Below are positions 15,564 through 35,400 of a DNA stretch of 64,000 nucleotides, in pieces. The notes beneath the pieces were generated by a model. The model was not told the DNA's origin. It was given only the letters and a program-made list of their open reading frames with translations, and did no database searches. The translations under genes and the position numbers were made by a program. This stretch comes from an uncultured Planctomycetota bacterium. GTDB lineage: Bacteria; Planctomycetota; PLA2; JAEUHO01. The stretch spans positions 992,001 through 1,056,000 of the forward strand of contig CAVVXN010000005.1 of the NCBI GenBank assembly GCA_963752285.1, read 5' to 3'. Position 1 is the stretch's first letter; the number at the start of each line of letters is the position of its first letter.

Positions 15564-15713
15564 GCGGCGATGCTCCTTCTTGCCTGCCGCCGGCCGGGGG
15601 AGCCGCGGCGGAGGAGGGGACACGCTACGGCCGCGCCCCGCCCCCCACCACCCCGTGCGCGACCTTCGAATCCACGAACGGAGACCGGTCGCGGCTCCGG
15701 GAATGGGGCGGGC

Positions 15714-17540: not shown

Positions 17541-17648
17541 GCGATCCTCCGGGTGTCCGATGAACGGCGCTCGGCCGCCCCTCCGAGGGGGCGCCTATAC
17601 TCCCCCGGTCGGCCGACCCACGGGGGTTCGGCCCGGGAGGCCCCCCCG

Positions 17649-18500
17649 ATGCATGTCCGCCCGTGTGCGTGCCGAGTCCCCGGACTCGCGGCCCTCCTCC
17701 TCCTGGCCGCGTGTGGCGGCGGCGGAGGCGGGTCGTCGGCGGCCCCGGTCCAGCTCATCACCTCGAACGTGGTCCAGGCCATGCCCGCGGGCTACCGCGC
17801 GGTCTTCGACGCCTCCGCGCGCGTCAGCGTCAGCACCGCGCCGGTGCCGATCGACCTGACCGGCACGTACACGCTCTCGAACGAGGGCACGACCGTCGTC
17901 TACCCGCTCGACACGAGCCGCTCGGGCACGAAGGTCAAGAGCGAGATCGAGCTCGTGGTCCCGCAGATCGTGCGGAACCAGTACCCCAGCCTCCCGGCGA
18001 CGGTGCTCTTGACGCTGCGGGAGTACGTCGAGTTCGCGAACGACGGTACGTGGTACGCGCTCGGCGGCGACGCCGAAGACCCCACCGCCGTGCCGCCGGT
18101 CACGCACGTCTCGTGGGCCGCCACGCCGACGGTGGACTTCGAGCCGACGATCTTCCCCGGCCAGACGGTCGACGTACCCGAGACCGACGTCCTGGCCGAC
18201 GACCTCGTGACGGTCCTCGCGTCGCGCAAGAGCACGCGGACGGTGGCCCTCGCCACCGAGGTGCTCGACACACCTCTCGGACGCCTGGAGTGCTACCGCT
18301 CGGACGTGATCGAGACGGTCCAGCCGAACGCCCCCGGCGCGCTCCCCGTCGAGGTCACGTACCGCCGCTGGGAGCGACCCGACCTCGGTCTGATCCAGCT
18401 CCACCTCGAGAACTACCAGGTGACGGTGACCTACCAGATGCAGCCGGTGACGATCACGGTCCAGCGGATGGACGCCTACCTGCGCTCCCTCGCGCCCTGA
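17649..18500 (+). CDS. Hypothetical lipoprotein, beta-rich
   Basis: LLAAC lipobox with Gly run; protein-like composition (VLDTPLGRLECY...WERPDLGLIQ). Confidence 0.75.
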   Translation: MHVRPCACRVPGLAALLLLAACGGGGGGSSAAPVQLITSNVVQAMPAGYRAVFDASARVSVSTAPVPIDLTGTYTLSNEGTTVVYPLDTSRSGTKVKSEIELVVPQIVRNQYPSLPATVLLTLREYVEFANDGTWYALGGDAEDPTAVPPVTHVSWAATPTVDFEPTIFPGQTVDVPETDVLADDLVTVLASRKSTRTVALATEVLDTPLGRLECYRSDVIETVQPNAPGALPVEVTYRRWERPDLGLIQLHLENYQVTVTYQMQPVTITVQRMDAYLRSLAP

Positions 18501-18515
18501 CGAGGGTCGCGCCGG

Positions 18516-19772
18516 TCACGACTCGCTGGGCACGCCGAAGCGCGCGTGGTACCGGGCCGAGAGCCCCTCGACCTCGTCCTCCGCGAGCCCGAAGTCGGAC
18601 AGGGCGTAGCGGTGCACGCCGTGGCGGTGTCGCGGGTTCTCGGCGAGCCACCGCTCCATCCGGACCCGCATCGCGGCCGAGACGTCTCGTCCCGCCGCGG
18701 CCTGGACGCGCTCGACCACCTCGATGGGCCTCGCCACCAGGTCGGCGTAGAGCACCTCCACGACCCGCTGGCGGTCCCGCGCCTCGATCGGCTTCTCCAT
18801 CGCGTCCAGGACGCGCCGGCCGAGGCGCAGGGCCTGGCGGCCGAGCTCGAGGTCGTCCACCCGCGCCCCGACGAGGTGGCGCAGGAGCCGTACGAGGCTG
18901 CACGTGGAGGGGAGCACCTTCCGTGTGTCGCGGTGCGTGCGGACCACGATCGCGTCCGGATAGGCCTCGAGGAGCGCGGGGACCGACTGGAGGTGCGCCG
19001 GTGACTTGAGCAGCCAGCGCCCGCCGGGGCGGCTCCACTGCAGCACGCGGAGCTGGTCGGCGTGGAAGCGGTACGCATCCACGAACCGCGACGGCGGCTG
19101 GCCGTCGAGCCACTGCCGGTACGAGGGCACGTACGCGTAGAGGTGCCAAGCGGGCGACACGAACGTCCGCAGGAGCAGCGGGAGGCACTCCTCCGGCCCG
19201 GCGGCGGTGACCGCGTGGACCGACGGGAGCTCGGGCACGACGTCGAGGAGCATACGCACGTCGCGCGCGTGCTTCCGGGGTCTCGGGTCGCCGAAGAGAC
19301 CGCGCCGGGGCAACGGGTGGTACGCCTCCCAGCCGAGCAGAGGTCGCGCCTCCGGGTCCGCGGCGAGGAGGTTCTGGAGCAGCGTGGTGCCCGTGCGGGG
19401 GAAGCCCGCCACGAAGAGCGGCCGGTCGATCCGCTCCGCGGCGATCTCGGGGTTCGCGAGGACGAGGTCGCGGATCCGGAGACGGTTCTCGAGCGCGCGC
19501 GTCACCATGCCGCCCGCGACGAGGCGACCCAGCGGCGTCAGCCGCGCCTCCGCTTCGAGCGCGCGCGCGAGCACGGGGAGGGCCTCCACGACGGGCGCCT
19601 CGGCGAGGTCGTCGGCGGCGGCGTCCTGCACGCGCGCGCGGCGCCTCGCGCGGCGGAGCAGGCGGTCGGGGTCGAGCGCCGACCGGCCGAGCCCGACCCA
19701 GGCGCCCGCCCGGGCGGCGCGGCCCGCGAGACGGACGCCGGCGCGCGTGAGCGCGCCCCGTCGGGCGCTCAC
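18516..19772 (-). CDS. PAPS-dependent sulfotransferase
   Basis: 5'-PSB GFPRTGTT, WLLKSPAH and 3'-PB HRDTRKVLPS motifs; starts 10 bp after the PKS stop. Confidence 0.9.
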   Translation of the reverse strand: MSARRGALTRAGVRLAGRAARAGAWVGLGRSALDPDRLLRRARRRARVQDAAADDLAEAPVVEALPVLARALEAEARLTPLGRLVAGGMVTRALENRLRIRDLVLANPEIAAERIDRPLFVAGFPRTGTTLLQNLLAADPEARPLLGWEAYHPLPRRGLFGDPRPRKHARDVRMLLDVVPELPSVHAVTAAGPEECLPLLLRTFVSPAWHLYAYVPSYRQWLDGQPPSRFVDAYRFHADQLRVLQWSRPGGRWLLKSPAHLQSVPALLEAYPDAIVVRTHRDTRKVLPSTCSLVRLLRHLVGARVDDLELGRQALRLGRRVLDAMEKPIEARDRQRVVEVLYADLVARPIEVVERVQAAAGRDVSAAMRVRMERWLAENPRHRHGVHRYALSDFGLAEDEVEGLSARYHARFGVPSES

Positions 19773-19782
19773 GGCGCCCTCC

Positions 19783-22700
19783 TCACGAGGCCCGCCCGGC
19801 CACGGCGGTCTCCGCGAGGGCCACGGCGAGGACGTGGCCCCTCGTCACCGAGGTCCGGACGCGGAGGTCCGCTCCGCCCTCGTGGCGCACGTCGAACGCG
19901 CCGTCCGGGCAGATCCGGACGGCCTCGTACGCCTTCGGCCGCCCGCGAAGGCCGGTGCCCCGGGCCTTCGCCGCGGCCTCCTTCGCGCACCAGAGTCGCG
20001 TCGCCCACGTCGGGTCGTCCGGGTGCCCTGCTTCGGCGAGGCGGCGCACCTCGTCCTCCGTCGCGAACGAAGCGACGTCGAGGTCCCGCGCGGCGTCCGC
20101 GCGCTCGAGGTCCACCCCCACCGGGCCGGACGCGGCCACCGCGACGGCCGCGTCCTCGGTGTGGGACAGCGACAGGTAGGGCGCCGGACCTCCCCCCGCC
20201 TCGCGGACGCGCGGCGCGCCCGCCTCGTCCGTTCCGATGGAGACGGCCGCCGGATGGAGCATGTCGTCCCGGCCCGCGCGCCGCGCCAGGAAGGCGCGGA
20301 GCGCGTCCTTGAGCGCCGCGCGCCCGAGGAGCCAGGCGCGACGCCGACGCGGCGTCGCGTCGAGCGCGCGCCATGCCGCCTCCTCGTCGGCGTGGAGGAC
20401 GTTTCGCGCGAGCCAGTCGGGCGGCAGGTCGCGCACCGCGTCGGCGTCGAGCCACACCACGACGTCGCCGGGATCGAGGCCGAGCGCGGTCGGGTCGCCC
20501 TCGACCGGCTCGGCCAGCAGGTGACGCCGCGGCGCGCGGTGGTTCTCGAGCAGACGTCGCGGCCAGCGGAACGCGGCGTCGCGCCACCCCCGCAGGCGGA
20601 ACCACACGTGGCCCTCGCCGTCCTCCACCTCGACGTCCGCGACGGTGCGCCGACGCTCCCAGTCGACCTCCCTGAGCTCCGCGCGCGCGGGGCACCGCGT
20701 GCCCGGCGCGGGGCTCGCGCGGTACAGCTCGACCCGGTCCACGGCCACCGGGAGCACGTAGCCCTCCTCTCCGTGGAACCACGACCCCACGAGCTGTCCC
20801 GCGCCGTCGAGCGTAACGGGGTCGAGCAGGAGGTGCGGGTCGGGCTCGCCGCGGAACAGCTCGTCCCGGCGCAGCACCTCGAGCGTCCCGGCGACGCCGC
20901 GCCCGCGGCGCTCCGTGAGCTCCGCGAGGCAGCGGAACCGTGGGCCGTGGAACAGCTCCCCGTCCTCGTAGAGGCGACGTGCCGTCGTGCCGAACGGCCG
21001 GTCGTCCGGGAAGCGCGTGAACGCGAACCGGACCGTCTCGCGGTAGCGCGTACCCAGGTGGACGTCGGCGCGCGCGACCCGATCGTCCCCCACGGACGCC
21101 TCCACGCGCACGACGGCCGCCTCGGCCGAGCGCCGCCGGACCTCGGCCCGGACCGCCACGCGCACCCGGTCCACGCCCTCGAACGCGATCCAGCGCCGGG
21201 CCCGCACGTCCTCGAGCGCCACGAGGCCGAGACCCGGCGCGAGGTGGACCGCGTGTTCCGACAGCATCTCCATGGTCATCGTGAGCGGGACGACGGGGAG
21301 ACACAGCGCGAGCGGCTTCTCGCCCCGCGCGTTCGAGAACACGTGGTCGGCGAGCCAGGGGTGCTCGGCGAGCGCGAGGTCCACGACGGTCTCGAGCCGC
21401 ACGCCCGGCTCGTGCGCCGTGACCCGTCCCACGAACGGCATCCGCCCGCGCGGCGCGCGCAGCTCCCTCGCGGCCGACGCGCGCGGGGCCTGCGGCGGGA
21501 CGGGGGGCGCCGGCGACGCGGCCAAGACCGGGGCCACCGCCTCCGCCTCGGTCTCCGGCGGTGCATCCGGCGCCTCGTGCATCGGAGGCCAGTAGAAGCT
21601 GAGGGGGACCGCGGCGCGCGGGGGCGACGCGGGGTCGCGCGGTCGGTCGAGGTCGATCGGCGCCGGGCGCCGCGCGGGGAAGAGCCCCGTCCGGTCGATC
21701 GCGAAGCCGTGCGCGAAGAGCTGGCCCGCGAGCGCCTGGATCTGCGTCAACGGCTCGCGGTGCGCCACGTCCATCGCCACGCAGACCACGTCGTCCCGGT
21801 CGAGCACGGAGCGGCTGTTCGCCGCCATCGTCCCCGACCCGATCTGCACGATGAAGCGCGCGCCCTCGTCGGCCATGCGTCGCATCGTCTGCCAAAAGCG
21901 GATGGGGCGCGACACGTTGGTGCGGAGCACGCGATCGACGTCGTCCGGGTCGCCACGGATCGGCGCTCCGAGCACCGCCGACCAGATCTCGATCCGCGCC
22001 GGACGAAGGCGCTCCAGCTTGCCGAGCGCCTTCGCGAACTCCGCCTCCACGTCGGCGAGGTGCGGCGTGTGGATGGGCGGGAACGGCAACGGCTGCGCGA
22101 GGATCCGCGCGCCACGGAGGGCTTCGGCGAGCGCGCGCACCGCCGTCTCGGGCCCTCCCACCACCTGGGTCGTCGGCGAGAGGTGGAGGCCGATCGACAC
22201 GCCCGGATGCGCGGCCAGGAAGGGGAGGAGCTCCTCCTCCGACGCCCCCACCATCGCGATGATGCCGGTGCCCTGGACGGGGAGCTGGATGTCGAACGCC
22301 TTCCAGAAGCCCGGCACGTGCTCCTCGAAGTCGGTCATCCCGGCGGCGAGCACCGCGGAGACGTCGCCGAGGCTCTGCCCGCACACCATGTCGGCCCGCA
22401 CACCGAGCGAGCAGAGGATCCGCCAGGCCGCCTCGTTGTTCGCGAGCATCCCCATGTGGGAGAGGCTCCGCGCGTCGGGGCGCGCGGGCGCCTCGGCCTC
22501 CGACGCCGACACGCGGGGCGGCGGCGCGAACCGCGCGAGGAGCGCCGCGCGCGTCTCGGCCGGCAGGTGCGGCGGCGGCACGAGGAGGAGGCTCGTCGGG
22601 ACGGGGTCCCCGGGGTTCCCGTCGCGCCGCTCCACGTGGTCGAAGACCTCGCGGGCCGCCGGGAAGTGGAGGCAGGTCTCGAGCAGGTGGCGCGGGAACT

Positions 22701-24561
22701 CGCCGACGAGGCCCGGGAACGCGAGGCCCGGGAACACGGCCGCGATCCGACCGCGCGGCCCGTCCACTCCCGTCGCCGGGTCCGAGACGTAGAGGAGATC
22801 GGCCTCCCGGGTCTCGAGCGCGCCGGACTCGATCGCGGCGACGAGCGCGTCGAGCCGCGGCTCGAGCGGCTCGGACGCGTCGTGCACGAACGCGAGCCGC
22901 GCGGCGTCCTGTGCGCGCGCCTCGCCCAGGGCGGCCCACGCGAGGTCCTCGAGCGTCGCCGCGCGCCGGTCGGCGCGCACGAACGCGAGGAGGCGCCGGA
23001 GCCGCGCCGCGACCGCCACGCGGTCGCGGCCCGAGAACAGGAGGACCTCCGTCGCGCGGCGGACGCGACTCTCGGGCGCGCGCGCGACGAGCACGGGTCC
23101 GCCGAGGGCCTCCTCCGACTCCGTGCGCCCGGCGCCGGGGACAACCACCCGCGTCGCGCGCGCGGGCACGGGCCGCGCCTCCTCCAGCACGACGTGCGCG
23201 TCGATGCCCCCGAAGCCGAAGGCGTCCACGCCCGCGCGGCGGGGCGCGGCCGGCGACTCGAGCCAGGGACGCGCGGCGCCGGGGACCCAGAACGACGTGT
23301 CGGCGAGCGCGGGGTGGGGCTGCTCGCAGTGGAGGCTCGGGTAGACCACCTTGTTCGAGAGCGAGAGCGCGGTCTTGATCAGCGCGGCCACGCCCGCGGC
23401 GGGCATCAGGTGGCCGATCATCGACTTCACGGAGCCCAGCGGGCGCGCCGGCACGCCGCCGCGCGGCGGACCGAACACACGGCGCAGCGTCTCCAGCTCG
23501 ACGTCGTCGCCCTCGCGCGTCCCCGTGCCGTGCGCCTCGACGAGCCCGATCGTCTCGGGATCGACGCCGGCGTCGTGGTACGCCCGCTCGAGCGCCCGCA
23601 CCTGTCCCCCCGCCGCGGGGGCGAGGACGCCGCGCTGGCGTCCGTCGCTCGCACTGCCGGCGCCCTTGACGATCGCCCACACCGGGTGGCGGCGGGCGAT
23701 CGCGTCGTCCAGGCGCTCGAGCACGACGGCGCCCGCGCCCTCGCCGATGAGCATGCCGTCCGCGCGCCGGTCGAACGGCCGGATGCGTTCGGAGGGCGAG
23801 ATCGCGAGGATCCGGTCGAAGAGCCACCAGAACGCCGGCACCTGCGTGAGGTTGACGCCCGCCGCGACGGCGATCTCCGCGCGCCCGTCGCGGAGCCGGA
23901 GCACGGCGGTCTCGAGGGCGAGGAGCGACGAAGCGCACGCGCCGTCCACCGTGAAGGCCGAGCCGCCGAGGTCCAGGCGGTTCGCCGCGCGGGACGGGAC
24001 GAGATTGGGGATGCTCGAGGCGAGCCCGTCCACGTCGTACGGAGGAAGCGTGCGGCGCAGGGCGGCGTCGATCCCGTCGAGGAGCTCCGGGCCGAGGCCC
24101 GGCGCGCGCGACGAGAGGAAGCGCGAGAAGCGGTCGATGCCCTCCGACCGCAGGAACACCTCCATCATCTTGTTGCTGGTGTAGCCGCCGCGCCCGACGA
24201 TCAGGTCGGTCGCGGCGCGCCGCGGGTCGTCGCGACCGACGCCGGCGTCTTCGAGCGCCCGCGCGACCACGTCGAGCAGCAGGAACTGGTCGGGATCGCC
24301 GTCCCGCGCGATCCTCGGCATGATGCCGTACCGCGCGCCGTCGAACCAGTGCGGCGTGTCGAGGAACCCGCCGCGGCGGAAGCGGATGTGCGCCTCGTGG
24401 TCCGAAGGGACCTCGTGGTTCTGCGCGCCGGGCCAGCGCTCCCGGGGGAGATCCCGGAGCGCGTCCACGCCGCGAGCCAGGTTGCTCGCGAACGTCGCGA
24501 GGTCCGGCGCGCCGGGGAACACGCACGCCATCCCGACGATCGCGACGTCCCTCTCGCTCAT
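19783..24561 (-). CDS. Type I PKS/Pfa-like synthase subunit 2: KS-AT-DH-PPTase, no ACP seen
   Basis: From MSERDVAIVGMACVFPGA. KS: DGACASS, EAHGTGT, GHLMPAAG. AT: GQSLGD. DH: HPWLADH...DGAGQ. PPTase: LSLSHT, GVDLE, WCAKEAAAKA. Confidence 0.9.
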   Translation of the reverse strand: MSERDVAIVGMACVFPGAPDLATFASNLARGVDALRDLPRERWPGAQNHEVPSDHEAHIRFRRGGFLDTPHWFDGARYGIMPRIARDGDPDQFLLLDVVARALEDAGVGRDDPRRAATDLIVGRGGYTSNKMMEVFLRSEGIDRFSRFLSSRAPGLGPELLDGIDAALRRTLPPYDVDGLASSIPNLVPSRAANRLDLGGSAFTVDGACASSLLALETAVLRLRDGRAEIAVAAGVNLTQVPAFWWLFDRILAISPSERIRPFDRRADGMLIGEGAGAVVLERLDDAIARRHPVWAIVKGAGSASDGRQRGVLAPAAGGQVRALERAYHDAGVDPETIGLVEAHGTGTREGDDVELETLRRVFGPPRGGVPARPLGSVKSMIGHLMPAAGVAALIKTALSLSNKVVYPSLHCEQPHPALADTSFWVPGAARPWLESPAAPRRAGVDAFGFGGIDAHVVLEEARPVPARATRVVVPGAGRTESEEALGGPVLVARAPESRVRRATEVLLFSGRDRVAVAARLRRLLAFVRADRRAATLEDLAWAALGEARAQDAARLAFVHDASEPLEPRLDALVAAIESGALETREADLLYVSDPATGVDGPRGRIAAVFPGLAFPGLVGEFPRHLLETCLHFPAAREVFDHVERRDGNPGDPVPTSLLLVPPPHLPAETRAALLARFAPPPRVSASEAEAPARPDARSLSHMGMLANNEAAWRILCSLGVRADMVCGQSLGDVSAVLAAGMTDFEEHVPGFWKAFDIQLPVQGTGIIAMVGASEEELLPFLAAHPGVSIGLHLSPTTQVVGGPETAVRALAEALRGARILAQPLPFPPIHTPHLADVEAEFAKALGKLERLRPARIEIWSAVLGAPIRGDPDDVDRVLRTNVSRPIRFWQTMRRMADEGARFIVQIGSGTMAANSRSVLDRDDVVCVAMDVAHREPLTQIQALAGQLFAHGFAIDRTGLFPARRPAPIDLDRPRDPASPPRAAVPLSFYWPPMHEAPDAPPETEAEAVAPVLAASPAPPVPPQAPRASAARELRAPRGRMPFVGRVTAHEPGVRLETVVDLALAEHPWLADHVFSNARGEKPLALCLPVVPLTMTMEMLSEHAVHLAPGLGLVALEDVRARRWIAFEGVDRVRVAVRAEVRRRSAEAAVVRVEASVGDDRVARADVHLGTRYRETVRFAFTRFPDDRPFGTTARRLYEDGELFHGPRFRCLAELTERRGRGVAGTLEVLRRDELFRGEPDPHLLLDPVTLDGAGQLVGSWFHGEEGYVLPVAVDRVELYRASPAPGTRCPARAELREVDWERRRTVADVEVEDGEGHVWFRLRGWRDAAFRWPRRLLENHRAPRRHLLAEPVEGDPTALGLDPGDVVVWLDADAVRDLPPDWLARNVLHADEEAAWRALDATPRRRRAWLLGRAALKDALRAFLARRAGRDDMLHPAAVSIGTDEAGAPRVREAGGGPAPYLSLSHTEDAAVAVAASGPVGVDLERADAARDLDVASFATEDEVRRLAEAGHPDDPTWATRLWCAKEAAAKARGTGLRGRPKAYEAVRICPDGAFDVRHEGGADLRVRTSVTRGHVLAVALAETAVAGRAS

Positions 24562-27500
24562 CGTCGCCCCGGGGTCGTGCCTCCGCGGGCGAGCGCGGGC
24601 GCGCCGACCGCCCACACCACCTCCGGTGACCGCTCCGTCGTTCGCCGGATCTCGTCGAGGAACGCCTCGCTCCCGTCCGCGGGGTCGATCAGCCCGATCC
24701 CCCGCTCCCGGTAGACGCGGCGGAGCCCGTCCGAGAGCATCCCGCCGTCCCACGGGCCCCAGTTGATCGCGACGACGCGCGCCGGCCAGCGCCGGTCGAG
24801 GTCGGCCGCGAGCTTGTTCAGGACCTCGTTGGCGGCGCTGTAGTCCGCCTGGCCCGCGTTCCCGAACCGGCCGGACACCGACGAGAAGAACGCGAGGAAG
24901 CGGAGCCGCTCGGGGTCGAGCCGCCGCGCGAGCACGAGCGCGGGCCGCACCTTCGTGTCGAACACCCGCGCGCAGGACGCGGCGGTCTTGTCCTCGATGC
25001 GCCGATCCTCGACCACGCCGGCGGCGTGGATCACGCCGTCGATCCGTCCGTGCCGCGCGTACACGTCGTCGATCAGGTTCCCGAACGCCTCGTCGTCGCG
25101 GACGTCGAGGGCGTGGTACTCGACCGCGGCGCCCGTGGCCTCGAGGGCCGCGAGGTTCGCGCGGACCTCGCGCTCCACCAGGACCCGTCGCGCCTCCGTC
25201 TCGATCGCCTCCGGCCGCGGCGGCGCGCCCGACGCGGCGGCACGGCGCGCCAGCGCCGCGCGAAGGGCGGCGCCGTCCCGCGCGCCGGCGAGGTCGGCCG
25301 GCTCGGCCGCCGGCCCCGGTCGGGGCGAGCGCCCGACGATCACGAGCAGCGCCCCGGACGCCGCGGCGAGACGCTTCAGCACCTCGGCGGTGATCCCGCG
25401 CGCGCCGCCCGTCACGAGCACGACCGACTCCGCGTCGAGGGGCAGCGCGGCGAGCGCGCCGGCGTCGCCGCCGGGGTGGCCGTCGCCATCCCCGTGGCCG
25501 TTGCCGTTCCCCGTGCCGTTCCCGGCCCCCGAGCCGTTCCCGTGCCCGCCGGCGGCGGCGAGGTCGAGACGCCAGCGGCCGGCGCGGTCGAGGCCCACCT
25601 CGACCAGGTCGTCCGTCGCGCCCGCCTCGGCGGCGAGCCGCGTCAGCACGATCTCGGCGTCGGCGTCGGGGTCGACGTCGATCGACTTCACCCGGACGCC
25701 GGGCCACTCCTTCGCCAGCGCCTTGAAGAAGCCGACGCTCGCCGCCTGCGCCACCGCGAGCGGGCGCCGGCCCCCGAGGCCGAAGCGACCGTCGAGCGCG
25801 GTGACGTTCAACAGCAGGGCGCCTCCGGCCTCCGCCGACGCCCGGAGGTCGGGGCCGAACGCCTGCCCCACGGTCAGCAGCTGCCGGAGGATCCGCGCCC
25901 CCGCGCCGGCCTCGTCCGTCGCGTCCCGCACCCTGGGATCGAGGCCCAGGAGGTTCACGAGGGCGCCGACGCGCCGTCCGCCGTCCGCGAGGACCGCGCG
26001 GAGGCGGTCCACCGCCGCGCGGTCCTCGAGGTCCACGGCGAAGCGACGCTCGTCGAGGCGTTCGAACCCGCGACCCGGCAGCACCTGCCACGCGGGGACC
26101 CCGGCGCTCCGGAGCCCGCTCCCGATCGCGCCGTACGCCTCGGGCCCGTCTCCGAGCACGAGCACGCCCGCGTCCGGCGCGAGCCCGAGTGTCGTCGGCT
26201 CGAGATCCGCCGGAGGAAGCGCGGCCTCGACGCTCTCGAGCACCCACCGCTCGACGGGACGGGCCGGCGGCGAAGCGACGGTCGCCGCCGACGGGGTGTC
26301 GGTGGTCGCCGTCGCGCTCCCGGACGGCGCGGCCCCGGACGGCGGGGCCGCGGGGGCGACGGACGCGCGGGCCGCGCGGGCGTTCGTGCCGTCGTCGGCC
26401 GGCGACGGCGGCACGTCGGCGCCGACCACCTCGCGCTGGTGCGCGTAGCGCTCGACGATCGCGCCTATCGTCTTGAGCCGCGTGAACTCGGCCAGCACCT
26501 CCTCCTCGTCCTGGTCGGGGTCGGCGAAGTAGCGGTGGTAGCGCTTCAAGGCCGAGAAGATCTCCATCAGCTTGATGGAGTCGATTCCGAGGCCCGCCTC
26601 GAGCGGCACGTCCGGGAGGAGCAGATCCTCCGGGTAGCCCGTGCGCCGGCTCACCTCGCGGAGCAGCTCCTGGTGGAACGTCTCGACCGAGGGCGCCTCG
26701 CCGGCCGCGGCCTCGCCCGTCACCGCGCGCGCGCCCCCGGCCGTGTCGCTCGCGGCGGGCGTGTCGGACGACACGTCGTTCCCTCGCGCCGCCCCCGGCC
26801 CGGGCGCGGACGGATCGGCGCCCCCGCCCCCGACCTCGGGCGACCCCGGCGACGCGAGCGGCTCGAGCGGCGCGAGGACCGGCGTCGGCACGACGCCGAG
26901 GAAGGCGGGCTCGGCGCCGGAGGCCCCCGCCTCCGCGGGCGGGCGGACCGGGGGGACCGAGCCCGACGGGGTCCCGTCGAGGAGCCGCGTCTGGAGCTCG
27001 ATCAGCCGCTCGAATACGCGCTGCTGCTCGCGCTGGAGGCCGATCCAGTCGCGGATCGTCCGCTGGACCTCGAGCGGGAGGGTCGCATCGCCCCGCGCGC
27101 CGCGGACCTCCGGTCCGAGCGGCCGTTCGATGGGCGCGGGCGTCGGGGACGGCGGCGGAGCGGGGGACGGATCGGGCTCGGGCATCGGCGGAGGGTCGCC
27201 GCTCTCGCCGTCCCGTCCACCCGCGCGCGGGGTGCGGGCGGGCGCGGGCACGACGGCACGCGCCTTGGGCGCGGACGCGGGCCCGTCCGCGGGCGACGCG
27301 CCCGGGGCCGCGGATCGCGCGGCCTCTCCGGCCCGGGGGGCGACGGGCGAGACGCCGCCCGGCTCCACGAGCACGTCGGTCGGCCGGACCCTCTCGGCCT
27401 CGCGGATCTCGCGCGTCACCTCCGAGAGCCCCCGCGACCCGAAGCCTCGGCGCGTGAAGAGCGGCGCGAGGTCCACCTCGAGCCCGATCGCGAACGCGCG

Positions 27501-30500
27501 CGCGAGGAGCCTCGCGAGGACGAGCCCTCCGGGCTCGCCGGGAAGGTCGAGCGGGAGGGTCACGTGCGGCCGCCCCTCGAGGATCCGGCGCACGAACCCG
27601 GAGAGGATCCCGCCGGGACCCGCCTCGACGAACACCCGCGCGCCCGCGTCGTGCATCGCGCGGACCTGCTCTACGAACCGCACGGGATGCGAGAGGTGAC
27701 GCCCCAGCAGCTCCTTCATCGCCACGACGTCGCGCGGGTACGGCTTGGCGGTCACGTTGCTGTGCACCGGGACCGCCGGCGGCCGCATCGCGACCTTCTC
27801 GAGCTCCGGCAGGATCGCCTTCGAGGCCTCCGTGACGAGCGCGGTGTGGAACGCGGCCGACACCGGGACACGCCGGGCCGCGAGCCCACGGGCCGCGAGA
27901 CGGGTGAGGCCCTCGTCCACCGCCGCGCGCGGGCCGGCCACGATCGTCTGGCGGGGCGCGTTCAGGTTCGCGATCTCGAGACCCAGATGCTCCTCGGCGA
28001 GGGCCGCCCGGACCTCGTCCTCGCCGGCCGCGACGGCGATCATCCCGCCCTCGCCCTCGGCGGCGACGTCGTGGACCGCGGCGCCGCGGAGCGCAGAGAC
28101 GACGAGCAGGTCGCGTCGCCCGTACGCGCCGGCGGCGTGGAGCGCGACGTACTCGCCGTACGAATGCCCGGCGGTGAAGGCGGGCCGGAGGCCGAACGTC
28201 GCGAGCACGTCGAGCGCGAAGAGCTCGACCGCGCCGAGCGCGGGCTGGGCGACGCGCGTGTCCTCGAGCTCCTCCCGCCGGCGGCGACGGTCGGCCTTCG
28301 TCCACGCCGGCTGCGGGAACACGTAGGCGGACAGCGGCACCGGCAGCAGGTCGCGCAGGAGGTGGTCGGCCTCCTCGAACACGCTCGTGTCGAACCCGGC
28401 GGTCGTGACGAGGTCGCCGAGCATGCCGATGCGCTGCGCGCCCTGGCCCGGGAACAGGAAGGCGACCTCCTTCGCGCGCGCCGGGGGCGCGTCCGAGAGC
28501 CAGGTCCCGCGCGCCTCGTCGAGGCCCGCCCCCGCGGCGAGCGCCTCACGCGCCCTCGCGAGCGCCGATCGGAGGTCCGAGAGCGAGGACGCCACGACGC
28601 CGAGCCGCGCCGCGTCGGGCCCGTCACGGTCGCGTGCGCGCTCGTCGGCGTGGACCGCGGCGGCCACGCGCGCGAGGGCGCCCTCGGGCAGGCCGGCCGT
28701 CTCGCCCTCGATCCTCGCGACCGCCTCCGCGAGGGCCTCGCGCGTCGGGCGCCCGATCGACACCACCTCGGCGTCGCGCGGCGCGAGGTCCCGCGTCGCG
28801 TCCGGGCAAAACGCGTCCTCGTACGCCTCCAGGACCACGTGGAAGTTCGTCCCCCCGAACCCGAACGCGCTGACGCCCGCGCGGCGCGCCGGGTGGCGCA
28901 CGTCGCGGATCCAGGGCCGCCGCTCGGTGTTCGCGTACACGCGGGAGCCCGCTTCGAGGAGACGCGGGTTCGGGCGCTCCACGTGGAGCGTGGGCGGCAG
29001 CGTGCGGTGCGAGAGCGCCAGCGCCGTCTTCACGAGGCCGGCGAGGCCCGCCGCGGTCTTCGCGTGGCCGATCTGCGACTTCACGGAGCCGATCGCACAC
29101 GTCGGACGCCCGGGACCGAGCACGGCCTGGAGCGACTCGATCTCGGCCGCGTCCCCCACCGCCGTGCCGGTCGCGTGGGCCTCGATCAGCTCGACGGTCG
29201 CCGGGTCCACACCGGCGTCCTCGTACGCACGACGCAGCGCGAGGACCTGCCCCGCGGGATGCGGCGCCGTCAGGCTCCGGTTCCGCCCGTCGCTCGAGGT
29301 CCCGATGCCCCGGATCACCGCGTACACGTCGTCGCCGTCGCGCTCCGCGTCCTCGAGGCGCTTCAGCACGACGGCCCCGACGCCCTCGCCGAGCACGATC
29401 CCGTCCGCGCCGGCGTCGAAGGGGCGCGGCACGTCCCCCGGCGTGAGTGCCTGGGTCTTCGCGAAGCCCATGAACGTGAACGCGTTGTTCGAGCCGTCGG
29501 CCGCGCCGACCACGACCACGTCGGCGACGCGTGACCGGAGCTGTCCCACGGCGGCGTGGAGCGCCGCCAGCGACGACGAGCACGCGGCGTCCACCACGTA
29601 GTTCGCACCCATGAGGTCGAGCCGGTTCGCGATGCGACCGGCGATCAGGTTGGGGAGCACGCCGGGGAACACGTCCTCGGTCCACGGGGGCAGGGCGGCC
29701 CGCACCGATTCGACCGCCCGCCGCCGCGCGTCGTCGCCGAGCGACGATGTGCGGAGGAGGAGCTGCTCGACCATCGTGCGGAACACGTACGAGATGCCCA
29801 GGTCGTGGATCCCGCTCGACCCGAAGATCACGCTCGTCCGCTCGCGCGGGAAGGGATGGCGGTCGAAGCCCGCGTCCTCGAGCGCGCGCCGCGCGGTCTC
29901 GAGCGCCAGGAGCTGCACGGGCTCGAGGTGCGTCACGGTCGCCGGCGGGATGCCGTAGCGCAGCGGGTCGAAGCGGATCGGCTCCAGGAACGCGCCCCGG
30001 CGCGCGTAGAGCCGGTCGGGCGCGCGACGGTCGGGGTCGTAGAAGAGGCTCGGGCTCCATCGCGACTCGGGCACGTCCCGGACCGCGTCCGCGCCCCGGA
30101 GCACGCACGCCCAGAACGAGGCGAGGTCGGGCGCGCCCGGGAAGCAGCACGCCATGCCCACGATCGCGATGCGCTCCCCGCCGCTGCGCCGGCGCGCGCC
30201 GACCGCGAGCGGCACGGCGTGCCGGTGCGTCCACTCGACCGCGCCGCGGGAGACCGCGTCGTGGAGCGCCGCCATCGACTGCCGGCCGTCGCGGAGCGTC
30301 GCGACGTCGCCGAGCATGAACATGCCCTCTCGCCGCTGTTCGGACGAGTCCACGCGCTCGAGCTCGCCCTCGAGGCGTTCGGCGCGGGACGCGAGGTCGT
30401 CGGCCTCCGCGTCGGCTCGCCCGCGGCGTCGGAGTCCCTTCGAGGCGACGCGGAGCCGCCCCACGTTCAGGATCTCCAGGTCCACCCGCACGTCCTCGGC

Positions 30501-32264
30501 CGAGCGGCCGGCCGCGAGGAGCGAGCGCCGGCGACTCCTGAACTCCTCCGCGAACGCCGTGTCGGCGCACCGGGAGGCGTGGCCGAGCCCCGAGCGAAGG
30601 AGCGTCGTCCTCCGGCAGGCGATCGCCTCTTCCTGGAACGCGGGTGAGATCGCGCCCGTCGCCACGGCCTCGGGGGTGAAGAGGTAGGCGGTCCCCAGGA
30701 GGACGCCGATCGCGACGCCCCGCTCCACGAGGCCCGCGGCGAGCGTCTGCACCATGCCCGCGGAGGCCGCGTCGTGGATGCCGCCCGCGAAGAGCACCCG
30801 GACGGTCGCGAGGTCCACGCCCGCGTCGCAGAGACGGTCGATCGCGCTCTGCCACAGCACGAAGCTCGACCGCGGCCCGACGTGGCCGCCGCACTCGCGC
30901 CCCTCGAGGACGAAGCGGCGCGCGCCCTCCACGAGGAACGCCTCGAGCAGGCCGGGCGACGGGACGTGCAGGTACGTCTCGATGCCCTCGGCCTCGAGCG
31001 CCGCGGCCTGCGCGGGCCGCCCGCCGGCGACGATCGCGAAGCGTGGTCGGATCTCGCGCACGACCCGGAGCTGCTCCTCACGGAGCTGCGGCGGGACGAA
31101 GCCCAGGATCCCGACGCCCCACGGCGACGCGCCGAGCTGGGAACGGGCGCCCTCGAGCATTCGCCGTACGGCGTCCTCGCGCAGGAGGGCGAGCGCGAAG
31201 AACGGGAGCGCGCCGTGCTCGGCGACCGCGCGCGCGAAGGCGGGCACGTCGCTGACGCGCGTCATGGGCCCCTGGACGACCGGGTACCGGGTCCCGTGGA
31301 CGCGGGCGAGCGTCGCGTCGGGCGCCAAGGCGCGCTGGGCGGGCGCGCGGTCCAGATGGTGCCGCACCTCGGCGCGGTACCGCTCGAGGATCCGCCCGAG
31401 CGTGCCCGCGGTCTTCGCGAGGCGCGCCGCGAAGGCGACGCCCTGTCCCATCGGGACGGGCCCGCCGGACTCCGGCGGTCGCTCGCGCCAGCGGGCGAGG
31501 ACGGCGCGCACCGCCTCGAGCCCGCCGGGCTCCGCGACCTCGAGCGCGGCGACCGCGTCGCGGTCCTCGTGCCGGAACAGCCGGACCGCGGCCCCCTCTT
31601 CCGCGAGCAGGACCGTCTCGGTCCCGTCGAGGGCCTCGAGGCGCCGGCGCTCCCGCGCGTCGAACGGCGCCTCCCGCGCGAGCCAGGTCTCCTCCGAGAG
31701 GACCACGCCCTCCGCGCCCCCGAGCCGGAGCGCGGCCGCGACGTCGGGGCCCGTGGCGCCGCGGACGAGGTAGGGCAGGCCCAGCCGCTCTCCCACGGCC
31801 TGCACGAAGAGGAACGTCGAGAGCGCGCCCGCCCGCCCCCCGGCCTCCTGGCCGACCAGGACGACGGTGTCGGGACGGGCGTCCCGGGCCGCACGCGCCT
31901 GATCGGGGTCGTACGCCTCGACGTACACGCGATCGGCGAGACGCCGGGCCTGCCGCACCGCCTCCGCCACACGCGCGGGGTCGCCGGAGAGACCGGCCAG
32001 GAGGAGGACCGGGACCTTTCCGTCCGCGAGCCCCTGGAGCGCCTCGGGCATCCGCCCCGGCGCGTCCCAGACGTTCCACCGGACGCCCCACGCCCCGCCT
32101 TCCCTCGCGTGCCGCCGCAGGCGGTCGAGCTCGGCGCGCCGTCGATCGAGGGGGGCCGAGAGCCCGAGGTCGAGCAACCCGACCGCGCCCGCCCGGGCCG
32201 CCGCGATCGCGAGTCCCGCGTCGAGGCGATGCTCCGGCGTCAGGACGACCCAGGTCGTGGACAT
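24558..32264 (-). CDS. Type I PKS/Pfa-like synthase subunit 1: degenerate ER-ER(PfaD/FabK type)-KS-AT-ACP-KR
   Basis: ER: QGPMTRVSD, EGRECGGHVG, AGGIHD. KS: DAACSSS, EAHATGT, GHAKTAAG. AT: GHSYGE, AFHT. ACP: LGIDSIK. KR: TGGARGIT, YSAAN. Confidence 0.92.
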   Translation of the reverse strand: MSTTWVVLTPEHRLDAGLAIAAARAGAVGLLDLGLSAPLDRRRAELDRLRRHAREGGAWGVRWNVWDAPGRMPEALQGLADGKVPVLLLAGLSGDPARVAEAVRQARRLADRVYVEAYDPDQARAARDARPDTVVLVGQEAGGRAGALSTFLFVQAVGERLGLPYLVRGATGPDVAAALRLGGAEGVVLSEETWLAREAPFDARERRRLEALDGTETVLLAEEGAAVRLFRHEDRDAVAALEVAEPGGLEAVRAVLARWRERPPESGGPVPMGQGVAFAARLAKTAGTLGRILERYRAEVRHHLDRAPAQRALAPDATLARVHGTRYPVVQGPMTRVSDVPAFARAVAEHGALPFFALALLREDAVRRMLEGARSQLGASPWGVGILGFVPPQLREEQLRVVREIRPRFAIVAGGRPAQAAALEAEGIETYLHVPSPGLLEAFLVEGARRFVLEGRECGGHVGPRSSFVLWQSAIDRLCDAGVDLATVRVLFAGGIHDAASAGMVQTLAAGLVERGVAIGVLLGTAYLFTPEAVATGAISPAFQEEAIACRRTTLLRSGLGHASRCADTAFAEEFRSRRRSLLAAGRSAEDVRVDLEILNVGRLRVASKGLRRRGRADAEADDLASRAERLEGELERVDSSEQRREGMFMLGDVATLRDGRQSMAALHDAVSRGAVEWTHRHAVPLAVGARRRSGGERIAIVGMACCFPGAPDLASFWACVLRGADAVRDVPESRWSPSLFYDPDRRAPDRLYARRGAFLEPIRFDPLRYGIPPATVTHLEPVQLLALETARRALEDAGFDRHPFPRERTSVIFGSSGIHDLGISYVFRTMVEQLLLRTSSLGDDARRRAVESVRAALPPWTEDVFPGVLPNLIAGRIANRLDLMGANYVVDAACSSSLAALHAAVGQLRSRVADVVVVGAADGSNNAFTFMGFAKTQALTPGDVPRPFDAGADGIVLGEGVGAVVLKRLEDAERDGDDVYAVIRGIGTSSDGRNRSLTAPHPAGQVLALRRAYEDAGVDPATVELIEAHATGTAVGDAAEIESLQAVLGPGRPTCAIGSVKSQIGHAKTAAGLAGLVKTALALSHRTLPPTLHVERPNPRLLEAGSRVYANTERRPWIRDVRHPARRAGVSAFGFGGTNFHVVLEAYEDAFCPDATRDLAPRDAEVVSIGRPTREALAEAVARIEGETAGLPEGALARVAAAVHADERARDRDGPDAARLGVVASSLSDLRSALARAREALAAGAGLDEARGTWLSDAPPARAKEVAFLFPGQGAQRIGMLGDLVTTAGFDTSVFEEADHLLRDLLPVPLSAYVFPQPAWTKADRRRRREELEDTRVAQPALGAVELFALDVLATFGLRPAFTAGHSYGEYVALHAAGAYGRRDLLVVSALRGAAVHDVAAEGEGGMIAVAAGEDEVRAALAEEHLGLEIANLNAPRQTIVAGPRAAVDEGLTRLAARGLAARRVPVSAAFHTALVTEASKAILPELEKVAMRPPAVPVHSNVTAKPYPRDVVAMKELLGRHLSHPVRFVEQVRAMHDAGARVFVEAGPGGILSGFVRRILEGRPHVTLPLDLPGEPGGLVLARLLARAFAIGLEVDLAPLFTRRGFGSRGLSEVTREIREAERVRPTDVLVEPGGVSPVAPRAGEAARSAAPGASPADGPASAPKARAVVPAPARTPRAGGRDGESGDPPPMPEPDPSPAPPPSPTPAPIERPLGPEVRGARGDATLPLEVQRTIRDWIGLQREQQRVFERLIELQTRLLDGTPSGSVPPVRPPAEAGASGAEPAFLGVVPTPVLAPLEPLASPGSPEVGGGGADPSAPGPGAARGNDVSSDTPAASDTAGGARAVTGEAAAGEAPSVETFHQELLREVSRRTGYPEDLLLPDVPLEAGLGIDSIKLMEIFSALKRYHRYFADPDQDEEEVLAEFTRLKTIGAIVERYAHQREVVGADVPPSPADDGTNARAARASVAPAAPPSGAAPSGSATATTDTPSAATVASPPARPVERWVLESVEAALPPADLEPTTLGLAPDAGVLVLGDGPEAYGAIGSGLRSAGVPAWQVLPGRGFERLDERRFAVDLEDRAAVDRLRAVLADGGRRVGALVNLLGLDPRVRDATDEAGAGARILRQLLTVGQAFGPDLRASAEAGGALLLNVTALDGRFGLGGRRPLAVAQAASVGFFKALAKEWPGVRVKSIDVDPDADAEIVLTRLAAEAGATDDLVEVGLDRAGRWRLDLAAAGGHGNGSGAGNGTGNGNGHGDGDGHPGGDAGALAALPLDAESVVLVTGGARGITAEVLKRLAAASGALLVIVGRSPRPGPAAEPADLAGARDGAALRAALARRAAASGAPPRPEAIETEARRVLVEREVRANLAALEATGAAVEYHALDVRDDEAFGNLIDDVYARHGRIDGVIHAAGVVEDRRIEDKTAASCARVFDTKVRPALVLARRLDPERLRFLAFFSSVSGRFGNAGQADYSAANEVLNKLAADLDRRWPARVVAINWGPWDGGMLSDGLRRVYRERGIGLIDPADGSEAFLDEIRRTTERSPEVVWAVGAPALARGGTTPGRR

Positions 32265-32425
32265 CGGCGGTCCGCTAGACGCTCCCAAGTGCCTCCCTCG
32301 CCTGCCGGCCCCGGCGACCGAGTGTACCCGCCCCCCCGACCGGCCCGGGTTCAGGCGATGTCGGGGCGGCCTTCCCTTCGGGCCCGGCGGGCGCGGCGCG
32401 ATCATCCCCGGCTCGGGAGACCTCG

Positions 32426-35400
32426 ATGGACACGCGCGTAAGGCAGCGGAAGACCGACCGGATCGAGCAGGTCGTGGCCCAGCTCTCGGAGCGCTGGGAC
32501 GCAGCCGAGCGGGACCAGGTCGAGGCGTTCGTGCGCGCCTTCTACCGCGGCGTCCCGCCCGCCGACGTGGCCGACGCCTCGGCGGAGACCCTCTACGGGG
32601 CGGCGATCGCCGTCTGGCGCTTCTCGGAGCTGAGGGAGCCCGGCCACGCCAAGGTCCGGGTCTACACCCCCACCAGCGACGAGCACGGATGGGACTCGCC
32701 CCACACGGTCGTCGAGATCGTGAACGCCGACATGCCCTTCCTCGTGGACTCCGTTACCGCCGAGCTCCAGCACCTCGACGCGGAGGTGGCGCTCGTGATC
32801 CACCCCCTCCTCGACGTGGCCCGCGACGCCGAGGGCCACCGGGTCGCGATCGGCGAGGCGGCGATGGGCCACCCCGGCGTCCGCCGCGAGTCCTGGATGC
32901 AGATCCAGGTCCGGGCCCAGCCCCATTCCCAGCACGCGGAGATGGCCCGCGCCGTCGAGTCGGCCCTCGCGGACGTCCGCGCGGCGGTCGAGGACTGGGC
33001 GGAGATGCTCGAGCGGACCCACGCGCTGGCCGCGGAGCTCCGGTCGAAGGCCGGCGGCGACGGCGAGGCCGAGGACGCCGCGTTCCTCGAGTGGCTGACC
33101 GAGGACTTCTTCACCTTCCTCGGCTACCGGGAGTACGCCTTCACGCCCCAGGACGGAACGTGGCTCGGCACGGTCCTCGAGCCGACCGGGCTCGGCCTCC
33201 TGCGCGCGAGCGAGGCCCGCGTGTTCGACGGCCTGCTCGGGGGTGGGCTCGTCCCGCCCGACGTCGTCGCCTTCCTCGGCGAACCGGATCGCGTCAGGGT
33301 CACGAAGGCGAACCGGCGCTCCACGGTCCACCGTCCCGTGCTCCTCGACACGATCTCCGTGAAGCGACTCGACGACGAGGGGCGGGTGGTCGGGTGTCAC
33401 GTGCTCGTGGGCCTCTTCGCCTCGCGCGCGTACGCGGCGAGCCCGTGGAACGTGCCGATCCTCCGGCAGAAGGTCGGACGGGTCCTCGCGCGGGCCAACG
33501 TCCCGCCCGACACGCACGACGGGCGCGCGCTGCTCCACATCCTCACGTCGTTCCCGCGCGACGAGCTGTTCCAGATCACGGAGTCCGAGCTCGAGGCGGC
33601 GGCGTTCGGGATCCTCGACCTGCAGGAGCGTCCGCGCATCGCGCTCTTCGCGCGCGCAGACCCGTTCGAACGGTTCGTCTCGTGCCTCGTCTTCGCGCCG
33701 CGCGAGCGGTACGACACGGCGCTCCGGCTGCGCTTCCAGGACGTCCTCACGACCGCGTGGCGCGGGCACATCGCCTCGTACCACACCCAGCTCGACGACT
33801 CGCCCCTGGTCCGCCTGCACTTCACGATCGAGACCACGCCGGGCCAGGTCCCCGTCACCGACGTCACCGAGGTGGAGGACCTCCTCGTCGAGGCGGGGCG
33901 CTCGTGGGGCGACCGCCTCCAGTCCGCGCTCGTCGAGGTGCGCGGCGAGGAGCAGGGCATCCGCTGGTTCCGGCGCTACGGCCAGGCCTTCCCGGCGGCG
34001 TACCGCGAGACGTTTCACGCGCACGAGGCGGTGGCCGACGTCGCACACGTGGAGGCCGCGCTCGCGAACGGCGGGCTCGCGCTGAACCTCTACCGCCCGC
34101 TCGAGGCGCCGGAGCACCTGCTCCACTTCAAGATCTACGCGCTCGGCGCGCCGCTGCCGCTCTCCAACGTGCTGCCCATGCTCGAGAACATGGGGTTCCT
34201 CGTGCTGGGCGAGGAGCCGTACCGCCTCCGCCCGACCGACCTCGACCGGCCCTTCTGGATTCGCGACCTCGTGCTCGAGACGGCGGCTCCGGGGTCGGTG
34301 GACCTCGACCGCGTGCGCGGTCCCTTCCACGAGGCGTTCGCGCAGCTCTGGAAGGGCGAGCTCGAGAACGACGGCTTCAACCGCCTGGTCCTCCTGGCGG
34401 GTCTCTCCGCGCGCGAGGTGACGGTGCTCCGCGCGTACTGCAAGTACCTCCGCCAGGCGCGAATGCCCTTCAGCCAGGCGTACGTGGAGCAGACCCTCTC
34501 CAGCGAGCCCGAGATCGCGAAGCGGCTCGTGGACCTGTTCTACGCGCGACTCGACCCGGAACGACGGGACGGCGGCGCGACCGAGGAGGGCGAGATCGTC
34601 GAGGAGGTACGCCGCCTCCTCGACCGCGTCTCGAACCTCGACATGGACCGCATCATCCGGCGCTATCTCGAGACGATCGGCGCCACCCTGCGGACGAACT
34701 ACTTCCAGCCCGACGCGAGCGGGGCGCCGAAGGCCTACCTTTCGTTCAAGCTCGACTCCCGCCGCATCACGAGTCTCCCGCAGCCGCGCCCGTACCGCGA
34801 GATCTTCGTGTACAGCCCGCGCGTGGAGGCCGTCCACCTGCGGGGCGGCAAGGTGGCGCGCGGCGGGATCCGATGGAGCGACCGTCCCGAGGACTTCCGC
34901 ACGGAGGTGCTCGGCCTCATGAAGGCGCAGATGGTGAAGAACGCCGTCATCGTCCCGGTCGGGTCGAAGGGCGGGTTCTTCGTCAAGCGCCCGCCGGCTC
35001 CCGACGCGGGACGCGAGGCGCTCACCGAGGAGGTGGTCGCCTGCTACCGCACGCTGATGCGCGGCCTCCTCGACCTGACCGACAACCTCGAGGGCGCGGC
35101 CGTACGACCGCCCCTCCACGTCGTCCGGCACGACGAGGACGACCCGTACCTCGTCGTGGCCGCCGACAAGGGGACGGCGACGTTCAGCGACATCGCGAAC
35201 GGGATCTCGTCGGACTACGGGTTCTGGCTCGACGACGCGTTCGCTTCGGGCGGGTCGGCCGGCTACGACCACAAGAAGATGGGCATCACGGCGCGGGGCG
35301 CCTGGGAGTGCGTGCGGCGGCACTTCCGCGAGATGGGCAAGGACATCCAGTCCGAGGACTTCACGGTCGTCGGCGTGGGCGACATGTCGGGCGACGTGTT

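Follow-up and report, generated by a model that had tools for sequence, protein, structure and literature searches.

The 64,000-nucleotide stretch of DNA analysed here (the window; contig CAVVXN010000005.1, positions 992,001 to 1,056,000, of assembly GCA_963752285.1) derives from an uncultured planctomycete and carries an operon of three coupled minus-strand genes, in which a putative two-protein lipid synthase (genes A and B) is followed by a sulfotransferase (ST). Genes A and B overlap at an ATGA (24558-24561) and a 10-bp spacer, GGAGGGCGCC, with GGAGG inside it, leads from gene B to the ST gene, an arrangement that a preliminary description of this DNA had reported and that stood when the coordinates were re-checked. 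In gene A, Pfam profiles match an NMO/FabK-type enoyl reductase (ER), a ketosynthase (KS), an acyltransferase (AT) and a ketoreductase (KR), together with a weak PP-binding hit (20.1 bits; cut-off 20.8) for an acyl carrier protein (ACP); gene B matches KS, AT, a polyketide synthase (PKS)-type dehydratase (DH; PS-DH) and a phosphopantetheinyl transferase (PPTase; ACPS), and the third gene Sulfotransfer_3 (E 9e-38). The domains and their coordinates are collected in Table 1. For gene A, the ATG at 32264 was preferred over the start of a longer open reading frame at 32405 because homologues align from residue 1-4. No promoters or terminators were detected in a scan of 17400-33000, which the 77% GC content makes uninformative.

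The catalytic motifs of the operon domains are intact with a single exception, the N-terminal ER', which is without the His of ECGGH. The His of motif III is the proposed catalytic residue of such enoyl reductases (PMC13311796), and ER' is probably a structural partner of ER. Both KS domains retain a Cys/His/His triad, and KS2 reads as a true KS, not a chain-length factor (CLF); a third KS-like domain is absent. Searches of the three operon proteins with Pfam and TIGR profiles found no match to thioesterase or terminal reductase families, and a whole-genome search with the operon ACP as query returned one ACP only. Motif and profile checks thus agree with the preliminary description on the triads, the single ACP and the missing thioesterase and terminal reductase, and its proposal of an iterative, self-priming synthase of long-chain lipids is borne out by the motifs of the fused PPTase and by homology to the Ars system described below. 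Elsewhere, the genome encodes a second PPTase, and also an APS kinase and CysDN, so that 3'-phosphoadenosine 5'-phosphosulfate (PAPS) can be made; FtsZ has no match in this genome, which is 89% complete, and hydrazine synthase occurs in genomes of its phylum, both of which point to a planctomycete host.

Table 1. Genes and predicted domains of the synthase-sulfotransferase operon (positions in the window)
Feature	Position	Strand	Details
Gene A, ArsA-like ER'-ER-KS1-AT1-ACP-KR	24558..32264	-	2568 aa; Pfam, motifs, co-linear with Beijerinckia ArsA-like protein
ER', pseudo-enoyl reductase	31335..32264	-	EAGGR, catalytic His missing
ER, FMN-dependent FabK/PfaD-type enoyl reductase	30195..31334	-	ECGGH at 457-461; Pfam, TIGR03151
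KS1	28827..30176	-	Triad Cys895/His1030/His1067
AT1, malonyl-type	27594..28460	-	PGQG, GHSYG, Arg at Ser+25, AFH
Single ACP	26445..26702	-	Ser1896 in GIDS; long Pro/Ala-rich linkers on both sides
KR, catalytic part	24747..25424	-	GGARGIT, VVED, Tyr2475
Gene B, KS2-AT2-DH-PPTase	19783..24561	-	1592 aa; C-terminal half ArsD-like
KS2	23173..24552	-	Triad Cys209/His344/His384
AT2, non-malonyl	21742..22764	-	PGLA, GQSLG Ser730, Ala at Ser+25, PIH His831; clade-specific insert
DH, PKS-type double-hotdog	20587..21444	-	His1073/Asp1252
Fused PPTase	19822..20529	-	GVDLE, WCAKEA
ST, Stf1/Stf9-type sulfotransferase	18516..19772	-	418 aa; PRTGTT at 125-130, R281, S289; amphipathic N-terminal helix

Sequence comparison identifies as the nearest characterised system the Azotobacter-type Ars phenolic-lipid synthase (Type P of Shulse and Allen 2011) and not, as had been supposed, the Pfa or Hgl synthases; the wider assignment, to iterative type I lipid synthases, stands. 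Briefly, Type P synthases, described for Azotobacter vinelandii and Beijerinckia indica, make the C22-C26 chains of phenolic lipids and flank two type III PKS genes (PMC3098273), with ArsA being a fatty acid synthase whose ACP-bound chains go directly to ArsB and ArsC (PMC4824345, PMC6274091). We made the comparison through the cluster on B. indica plasmid pBIND02, whose Type P status rests on organism and gene order and which encodes a 2674-aa synthase, two type III PKSs and a 629-aa DH-PPTase. The Beijerinckia ArsA-like protein has the same domain string as gene A, ER'-ER included, and is co-linear with it (44.7% over 2060 columns plus 41.3% over 765), identity by domain being 35% for ER', 57% for ER, 59% for KS, 48% for AT, 46% for ACP and 45% for KR; the ArsD-like DH-PPTase matches the C-terminal half of gene B (38%, 34%). 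In FastTree phylogenies with midpoint roots, the Beijerinckia proteins nest within the clade of the window's synthase, clade I of the three described below, at supports of 0.999 (KS-AT-KR, 51 sequences) and 0.99 (DH).

The two systems part company at one place, where the Ars cluster has two type III PKSs and the window operon has KS2-AT2 fused to DH-PPTase; the Ars-type cluster also has two ACPs, as against one ACP and an ST after the synthase in the window. All three clades have KS2-AT2, so the history would be simplest if the unit had been lost in Ars and type III PKSs acquired where it stood; since the Ars-type cluster works without it, KS2-AT2 is presumably not needed for the reductive cycle. 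KS2-AT2 is probably a unit for chain capping and release, handling the finished chain. The window itself is without a type III PKS, and the genome's single match lies about 900 kb off on C5 at 23-28% identity. That lone gene (G000:C5:108376-109569, or L274:8376-9569, G000 being the window's own genome in the locus labels) is not linked to the operon and has genes for MMPL and FAD-oxidoreductase proteins nearby; its presence at C5:108.4-109.6 kb is the sole basis for suggesting that it may be fed by the operon.

The two-gene core of the synthase is a wide, common and uncharacterised family rather than an unusual one, with 613 relatives of gene B at E<=1e-100 when 8000 candidates were scored, and the two-gene layout is present at genome and metagenome loci of Actinomycetota, Acidobacteriota, Gemmatimonadota, Chloroflexota, Desulfobacterota, Nitrospinota and Planctomycetota. 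The preliminary description named no characterised product for the combination, and neither the ST-linked form nor its product is described in the literature searched, which left most subscription papers outside its scope. Occurrence is patchy, in 2 of 40 genomes of the window's class and 8 of 401 in a sample of the phylum (the window's genome counted in both); a first metagenome scan yielded zero relatives and a second mostly members of clades II and III. These clades come from a KS2 tree, in which clade I holds the window's protein, clade II is actinobacterial, with ACP, hydrolase, glycosyltransferase family 1 (GT1) and methyltransferase neighbours, and clade III has ACP, phosphodiesterase-family, hydrolase and short-chain dehydrogenase/reductase (SDR) neighbours. 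Catalytic residues are conserved throughout: the KS2 triad in 97/97 rows (two or more being duplicates), the KS1 triad in 50/50, the KR Tyr in 62/62, the ER GGH motif in 41/41 family members, and the DH His and Asp in 69/70 (one gap) and 70/70. Some members carry 2-5 ACPs.

Several versions of the core deserve description in their own right. The commonest, in clade III (e.g. L010:12140-22022, L134, L186), comes with a conserved cassette of a stand-alone ACP, an alkaline-phosphatase-superfamily (phosphodiesterase) protein, an alpha/beta hydrolase, an SDR and often a GT1, for which the literature search turned up no product. The clade II version, with ACP, alpha/beta hydrolase, GT1 and methyltransferase genes (e.g. 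L273:3009-17980 on a Streptomyces plasmid, L016, L018), occurs in cultured Streptomyces and Kitasatospora. Members from Planctomycetaceae (L112, L229, L231-L234, L236, L289) are mostly without ER'-ER and are accompanied by an HlyD-ABC-FtsX-FtsX exporter, which we take to resemble the DevBCA glycolipid exporter. At L235:3909-9800 (minus strand), P0103, P0107, P0108 and P0109, gene B is fused to a C-terminal 3-hydroxyacyl-CoA dehydrogenase that comes in two dissimilar forms. Finally, in five genomes with the anammox marker hydrazine synthase alpha (e.g. L116, L243 and L244, from G185, G124 and G202; family f33), the AT of the gene-B homologue leads directly into the PPTase with no DH match; in L116 this gene is followed by ACP, flippase, phosphodiesterase-family, PIG-L, GNAT and GT4 genes, a neighbourhood that suggests acylation of a surface glycan.

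How the operon relates to the better-known lipid synthases can be stated domain by domain. With Pfa and Hgl it shares an iterative type I design, an FMN-type ER, two KS and two AT domains, and a second AT that is non-malonyl by its motifs only. Gene A is PfaA-like in its KS-AT-ACP-KR order (TIGR02813, 933.5 bits, below the 1010.1 cut-off), but Pfa has tandem ACPs, a KS-CLF didomain and two FabA-type DH/isomerases, all three of which the operon lacks, its DH being PKS-type; moreover, the ER of Pfa is the stand-alone PfaD, whereas the operon has its PfaD-type ER fused at the N-terminus together with a dead copy, and the PPTase fused as well. The heterocyst-glycolipid synthase, Hgl, has a terminal reductase. 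The operon matches no family of such reductases and has no CLF, whereas HglC is KS-CLF-AT (PMC3098273). A pfaD-pfaA fusion whose partner has no CLF was published earlier from Ottowia thiooxydans, where a cluster is described that joins a fused ER-PfaA homologue to a pfaBC homologue without KS-CLF, as in the operon (PMC13291983). The operon layout is possibly one of the uncharacterised Types M-O of PMC3098273, a source whose main text does not contain the word 'sulfotransferase' and whose Types M-T have a PPTase motif, hShxH, that is common to the window's family. As far as these sources describe them, the Ottowia-like and Type M-O clusters have non-ribosomal peptide synthetase/PKS or glycosyltransferase neighbours, in place of which the window operon has the ST. 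CurM and Ols, for their part, combine a PKS with a PAPS-dependent ST of the broad Sulfotransfer_3 group, as the operon does. Their ST is an embedded domain with a thioesterase after it, whereas that of the window is stand-alone, has no thioesterase next to it and is structurally distant from the CurM/Ols STs. Overall, the operon would work like the secondary-lipid synthases of the Ars/Pfa kind and yet fits none of the systems compared, having no type III PKS, no CLF or tandem ACP and no thioesterase.

The ST itself is predicted to be a PAPS-dependent enzyme of the Stf1/Stf9 type. It matches mycobacterial Stf9 (2z6v, E 2e-48) and Stf1 (2zq5, E 3e-40) over the whole chain, although at only about 30% identity, and its model (pLDDT 93.6) superposes on them with TM-scores of 0.78 and 0.75, as against 0.33 for Ols and 0.31 for CurM, with 12-15% identity to these two, and 0.23 for the sugar-sulfating Stf0 fold; at profile level the CurM/Ols STs are matched at E 7e-7 and 3e-9. 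Residues R126, T129, T130, R281 and S289 are conserved in 94-99% of 135 sequences, and we take the RTGTT to be the 5' loop, and the Arg and Ser the 3' part, of the PAPS-binding site. An amphipathic N-terminal helix, which recurs in 10 of 10 homologues checked, hints at membrane contact. A model of ErSULT, a sulfotransferase of Eubacterium ramulus, fits Stf1 at 1.08 A, and of four tested the enzyme sulfates 3- and 16-hydroxyhexadecanoic acid; the same source gives the substrate of Stf1 as unknown (PMC13449962). In the parts of the literature consulted, none of Stf1, Stf9 and ErSULT was seen linked to a lipid synthase.

The preliminary description had asked whether the ST is syntenic with homologous PKS pairs, and in clade I it frequently is. 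An ST directly follows the PPTase gene in G001 (same genus as the window, 52%), in a metagenome-assembled genome (MAG) of Planctomycetaceae (43%) and in one of Acidobacteriota (41%), and four more pairs of top gene-B and ST homologues lie on same-size contigs from the same source (6902, 314210, 6909, 14345) and were taken as co-located. The eight linked STs form one clade with support 1.0, along with 28 database proteins of unknown context, and their identities co-vary with those of gene B (rho 0.88 for 8 pairs, permutation p 0.0006; 0.91 for 12 pairs, with four Planctomycetaceae pairs added). This ST type adjoins the synthase in 8/17 clade-I, 0/17 clade-II and 0/33 clade-III loci, many with short flanks; with wider flanks it is near the synthase in 10 of 18 clade-I loci against 0 of 50 in the other two clades, the additions being G043, which has GT1, ST and exporter genes in that order about 12 kb upstream, and the second of the G493 copies, with an ST immediately upstream. 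Three basal loci, one of which has a more distant ST three genes downstream, were excluded from these counts. Within one sample of 301 genomes, the clade-I synthase occurs in 10, the ST type in 15 and both in 9, such that the ST type is found in 9 of the 10 genomes with that synthase and in 6 of the remaining 291; counted by genus, the figures are 3/4 against 6/77 (p ~0.001), kin not being independent in this sample and few candidates having been scored per genome. The linked STs span two phyla at 38-60% ST identity and take three positions (downstream, upstream co-directional and upstream divergent), and the trees agree. Together these data indicate that the ST is clade-specific, belongs to the synthase cluster and co-diverges with the synthase. 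No new ST-linked locus came from G037's class (synthase in 0 of 4), G041's order (1 of 251) or G039's class (5 of 251, with an ACP or hydrolase following).

The same slot is filled differently elsewhere. The one clade-I genome without the ST at E<=1e-20 has the fused 3-hydroxyacyl-CoA dehydrogenase instead, GT1 glycosyltransferases adjoin the synthase in other family members, and other ST types occur in four clade II/III loci. At one of the clade III loci (L005:10065-14899, plus strand, Gemmatimonadaceae), an ACP, a different Sulfotransfer_3 enzyme and cysN/cysC/cysD come right after the synthase, which reads as an independent recruitment of sulfation with its own PAPS supply. As a separate observation, an Stf1-type ST stands directly before a cytochrome P450 in Planctomycetaceae (L267, L284, L286, L287), a hydroxylate-then-sulfate pair; the ST type precedes a P450 in three scanned loci without the synthase and in one extra copy in G415.

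Release of the chain can be considered through AT2, using AT motifs as defined in PMC12895367. An Arg at Ser+25 accompanies GHSxG and xFH in 54 of 54 AT1 rows; AT2 keeps the Ser-His dyad, but the Ser+25 column is without Arg in 71 of 71 homologues, and the Gln of PGQ is missing from the 70 rows that align there. AT2 is thus, from its motifs, not a malonyl transferase, and is by analogy a candidate domain for long-chain transfer or release. PfaB is also described as being without these motifs and as moving long chains; PfaB proteins transfer palmitoyl to ACP in vitro, and some homologues hydrolyse acyl-ACP, AT domains having an alpha/beta-hydrolase subdomain and a Ser-His dyad (PMC12895367). 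The likeness of AT2 to PfaB is probably one of analogy, because KS2 groups near the family's own KS1 and not with pfa-like outgroups, at a weak node support of 0.56. A model of AT2 (pLDDT 77, from 10 sequences) has a generic AT fold that carries no information on specificity, and a PfaB structure is absent among the fold-search matches listed for it. We also considered a Pks13-like condensation with a carboxyacyl extender and set it aside, as the carboxylate-binding Arg is missing from AT2.

We propose that the operon makes an O-sulfated very-long-chain hydroxy lipid, a reading that we favour by a modest degree, and consider it highly probable that the ST acts on the synthase's product in some form. 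The fused PPTase, whose domain is recognisable and whose activity is presumed, would prime the single ACP, upon which AT1 would load malonyl and a cycle of KS1, KR, ER and the gene-B DH would, by homology with ArsA and ArsD, build a saturated chain of about C22-C26, the chain length being borrowed from Ars. KS2 would then take the finished chain through the last one or few extensions, halting at the 3-hydroxy stage, and AT2, with no malonyl-binding Arg, would remove it from the ACP by hydrolysis or transfer in the manner of PfaB. Lastly, the ST would sulfate the hydroxyl with PAPS as donor, and the resulting sulfate ester, an anionic lipid, would probably serve in the cell envelope. The main, if indirect, argument for a hydroxylated product is that the enzymes found in the same slot, namely ST, GT1 and 3-hydroxyacyl-CoA dehydrogenase, act on hydroxyl or 3-oxo groups.

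Several points weigh against this proposal. The product and activities are predicted from genes alone, and no sequence feature shows KS2 leaving a hydroxyl, such that active KR, DH and ER could possibly give a fully reduced acid. About a quarter of AT2 rows have Lys/Arg one position before the Arg column, those of G001 and L002 being without it. ErSULT is likened to the window's ST only by way of Stf1. As to linkage, 8 of 18 clade-I loci show no ST in the available DNA (two with almost no flank), four of the eight core gene-B/ST pairs rest on same-size contigs alone, 7 of the 10 clade-I genomes in the 301-genome sample belong to one genus, and several Planctomycetaceae genomes have extra copies of the ST at unrelated sites; both the co-divergence and the co-occurrence can arise through common descent and transfer of the block. 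No lipid exporter adjoins the window operon, unlike those of the Planctomycetaceae members.

The gene position of KS2-AT2, which is that of the Ars type III PKSs, and the nesting of the Ars proteins in clade I raise a different possibility, namely that KS2-AT2 acts like ArsB/ArsC and adds two or three unreduced malonyl units to give an alkylpyrone or alkylresorcinol whose ring hydroxyl is sulfated. The GT1 and methyltransferase neighbours in other clades would suit a phenolic acceptor, and a PAPS-dependent enzyme, Cpz8, is described as sulfating a triketide pyrone (PMC6731281), although Cpz8 is likened to the window's ST by function only. We nevertheless regard this as unlikely: no cyclase or product-template domain was matched by Pfam in the operon proteins, a type I KS would have to be gated through several cycles while sharing its single ACP with an active KR, and the 3-hydroxyacyl-CoA dehydrogenase fused to some members speaks for an acyl group that is aliphatic and carries a 3-hydroxy or 3-oxo function.

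Distinctly less probable is a sulfoglycolipid-like product, for which AT2 would pass the long chain on to a sugar, a glycerolipid or a similar acceptor (or would load a long starter) and the ST would sulfate the acceptor's head group. No glycosyltransferase lies between synthase and ST in the window, G001 or the two MAG loci, and the sugar-sulfating Stf0 fold is distant from the ST (TM 0.23), against which stand the co-occurrence of GT1 and ST in G466 and G043 and the palmitoyl transfer by PfaB in vitro, on the strength of which AT2 may transfer rather than hydrolyse (PMC12895367).

Sulfation for release after the manner of CurM/Ols, which the preliminary description had entertained, fared poorly. 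In such a scheme the ST would sulfate a 3-hydroxyacyl-ACP and AT2 act as hydrolase, followed by decarboxylative elimination to a very long terminal alkene; the operon has no thioesterase, and the Ser-His dyad of ATs and the hydrolytic PfaB homologues (PMC12895367) would fit. The missing thioesterase does not call for sulfation, however, since AT2 offers a release route of its own; the ST has the Stf1/Stf9 fold (TM 0.78 to Stf9) and stands far from the CurM/Ols STs, and clades II and III keep the core with this ST type in none of 50 loci, as does one clade-I genome without the ST at E<=1e-20. We consider this route very improbable. Least probable of all is that the ST is a passenger with an unrelated substrate that moves with the block, for although its family is widespread, also alone or with P450s and SDRs, and G013 has the ST without the synthase, the linkage is held across two phyla, at 38-60% ST identity and in three positions, with trees that agree.

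The surroundings of the operon can be described briefly. Its flanks (13198-18500 and 32426-37255) are common to G001 and hold a large, divergent NAD-glutamate dehydrogenase gene, a convergent 315-aa open reading frame without Pfam match, a MutS-V protein and an ABC exporter pair; when the insertion site was compared, 1 of 5 family genomes had the flanking glutamate dehydrogenase, and there it and the MutS-like gene lie on separate contigs. Two sulfatases lie in the window at ~37906-41319 and ~43721-45340. Elsewhere in the genome, a second lipid cluster (G000:C5:1785000-1805000, L277) contains several stand-alone KSs, a FabA-like protein, an SDR, enoyl-CoA hydratases and the genome's second PPTase, and at G000:C2:52000-66000 (L276) genes resembling those of non-ribosomal peptide synthetases and a thioesterase sit beside cysC-cysD-cysN, with more Sulfotransfer_3 matches at C2:23-49 kb.

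On the widest view, which we put forward tentatively and think more apt to fail than to hold in full, the phenolic-lipid pathway of Azotobacter would descend from this synthase family, and KS2-AT2 would be a type I capping unit, making and releasing a polar head (a polyol or an unreduced polyketide ring) with neither type III PKS nor thioesterase. Together with the co-evolved ST, it would provide uncultured Planctomycetota and Acidobacteriota with sulfated very-long-chain envelope lipids of a class not yet described, with the sister clades, in actinomycetes and anammox bacteria, placing other head groups on the same core. More immediately, a wide two-gene family of lipid synthases without known product is now set beside the characterised Ars pathway, and KS2-AT2 is singled out as the unit presumably supplanted by type III PKSs, so that its role can be tested directly. 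The three-gene version, self-priming and with one tailoring enzyme, is the smallest member seen and hence suits heterologous expression. Were the proposal true, the Stf1/Stf9 fold would gain its first pathway-linked substrate, and the sulfated very-long-chain product would add a new anionic lipid to those of bacteria and might serve as a biomarker for planctomycetes that are uncultured.

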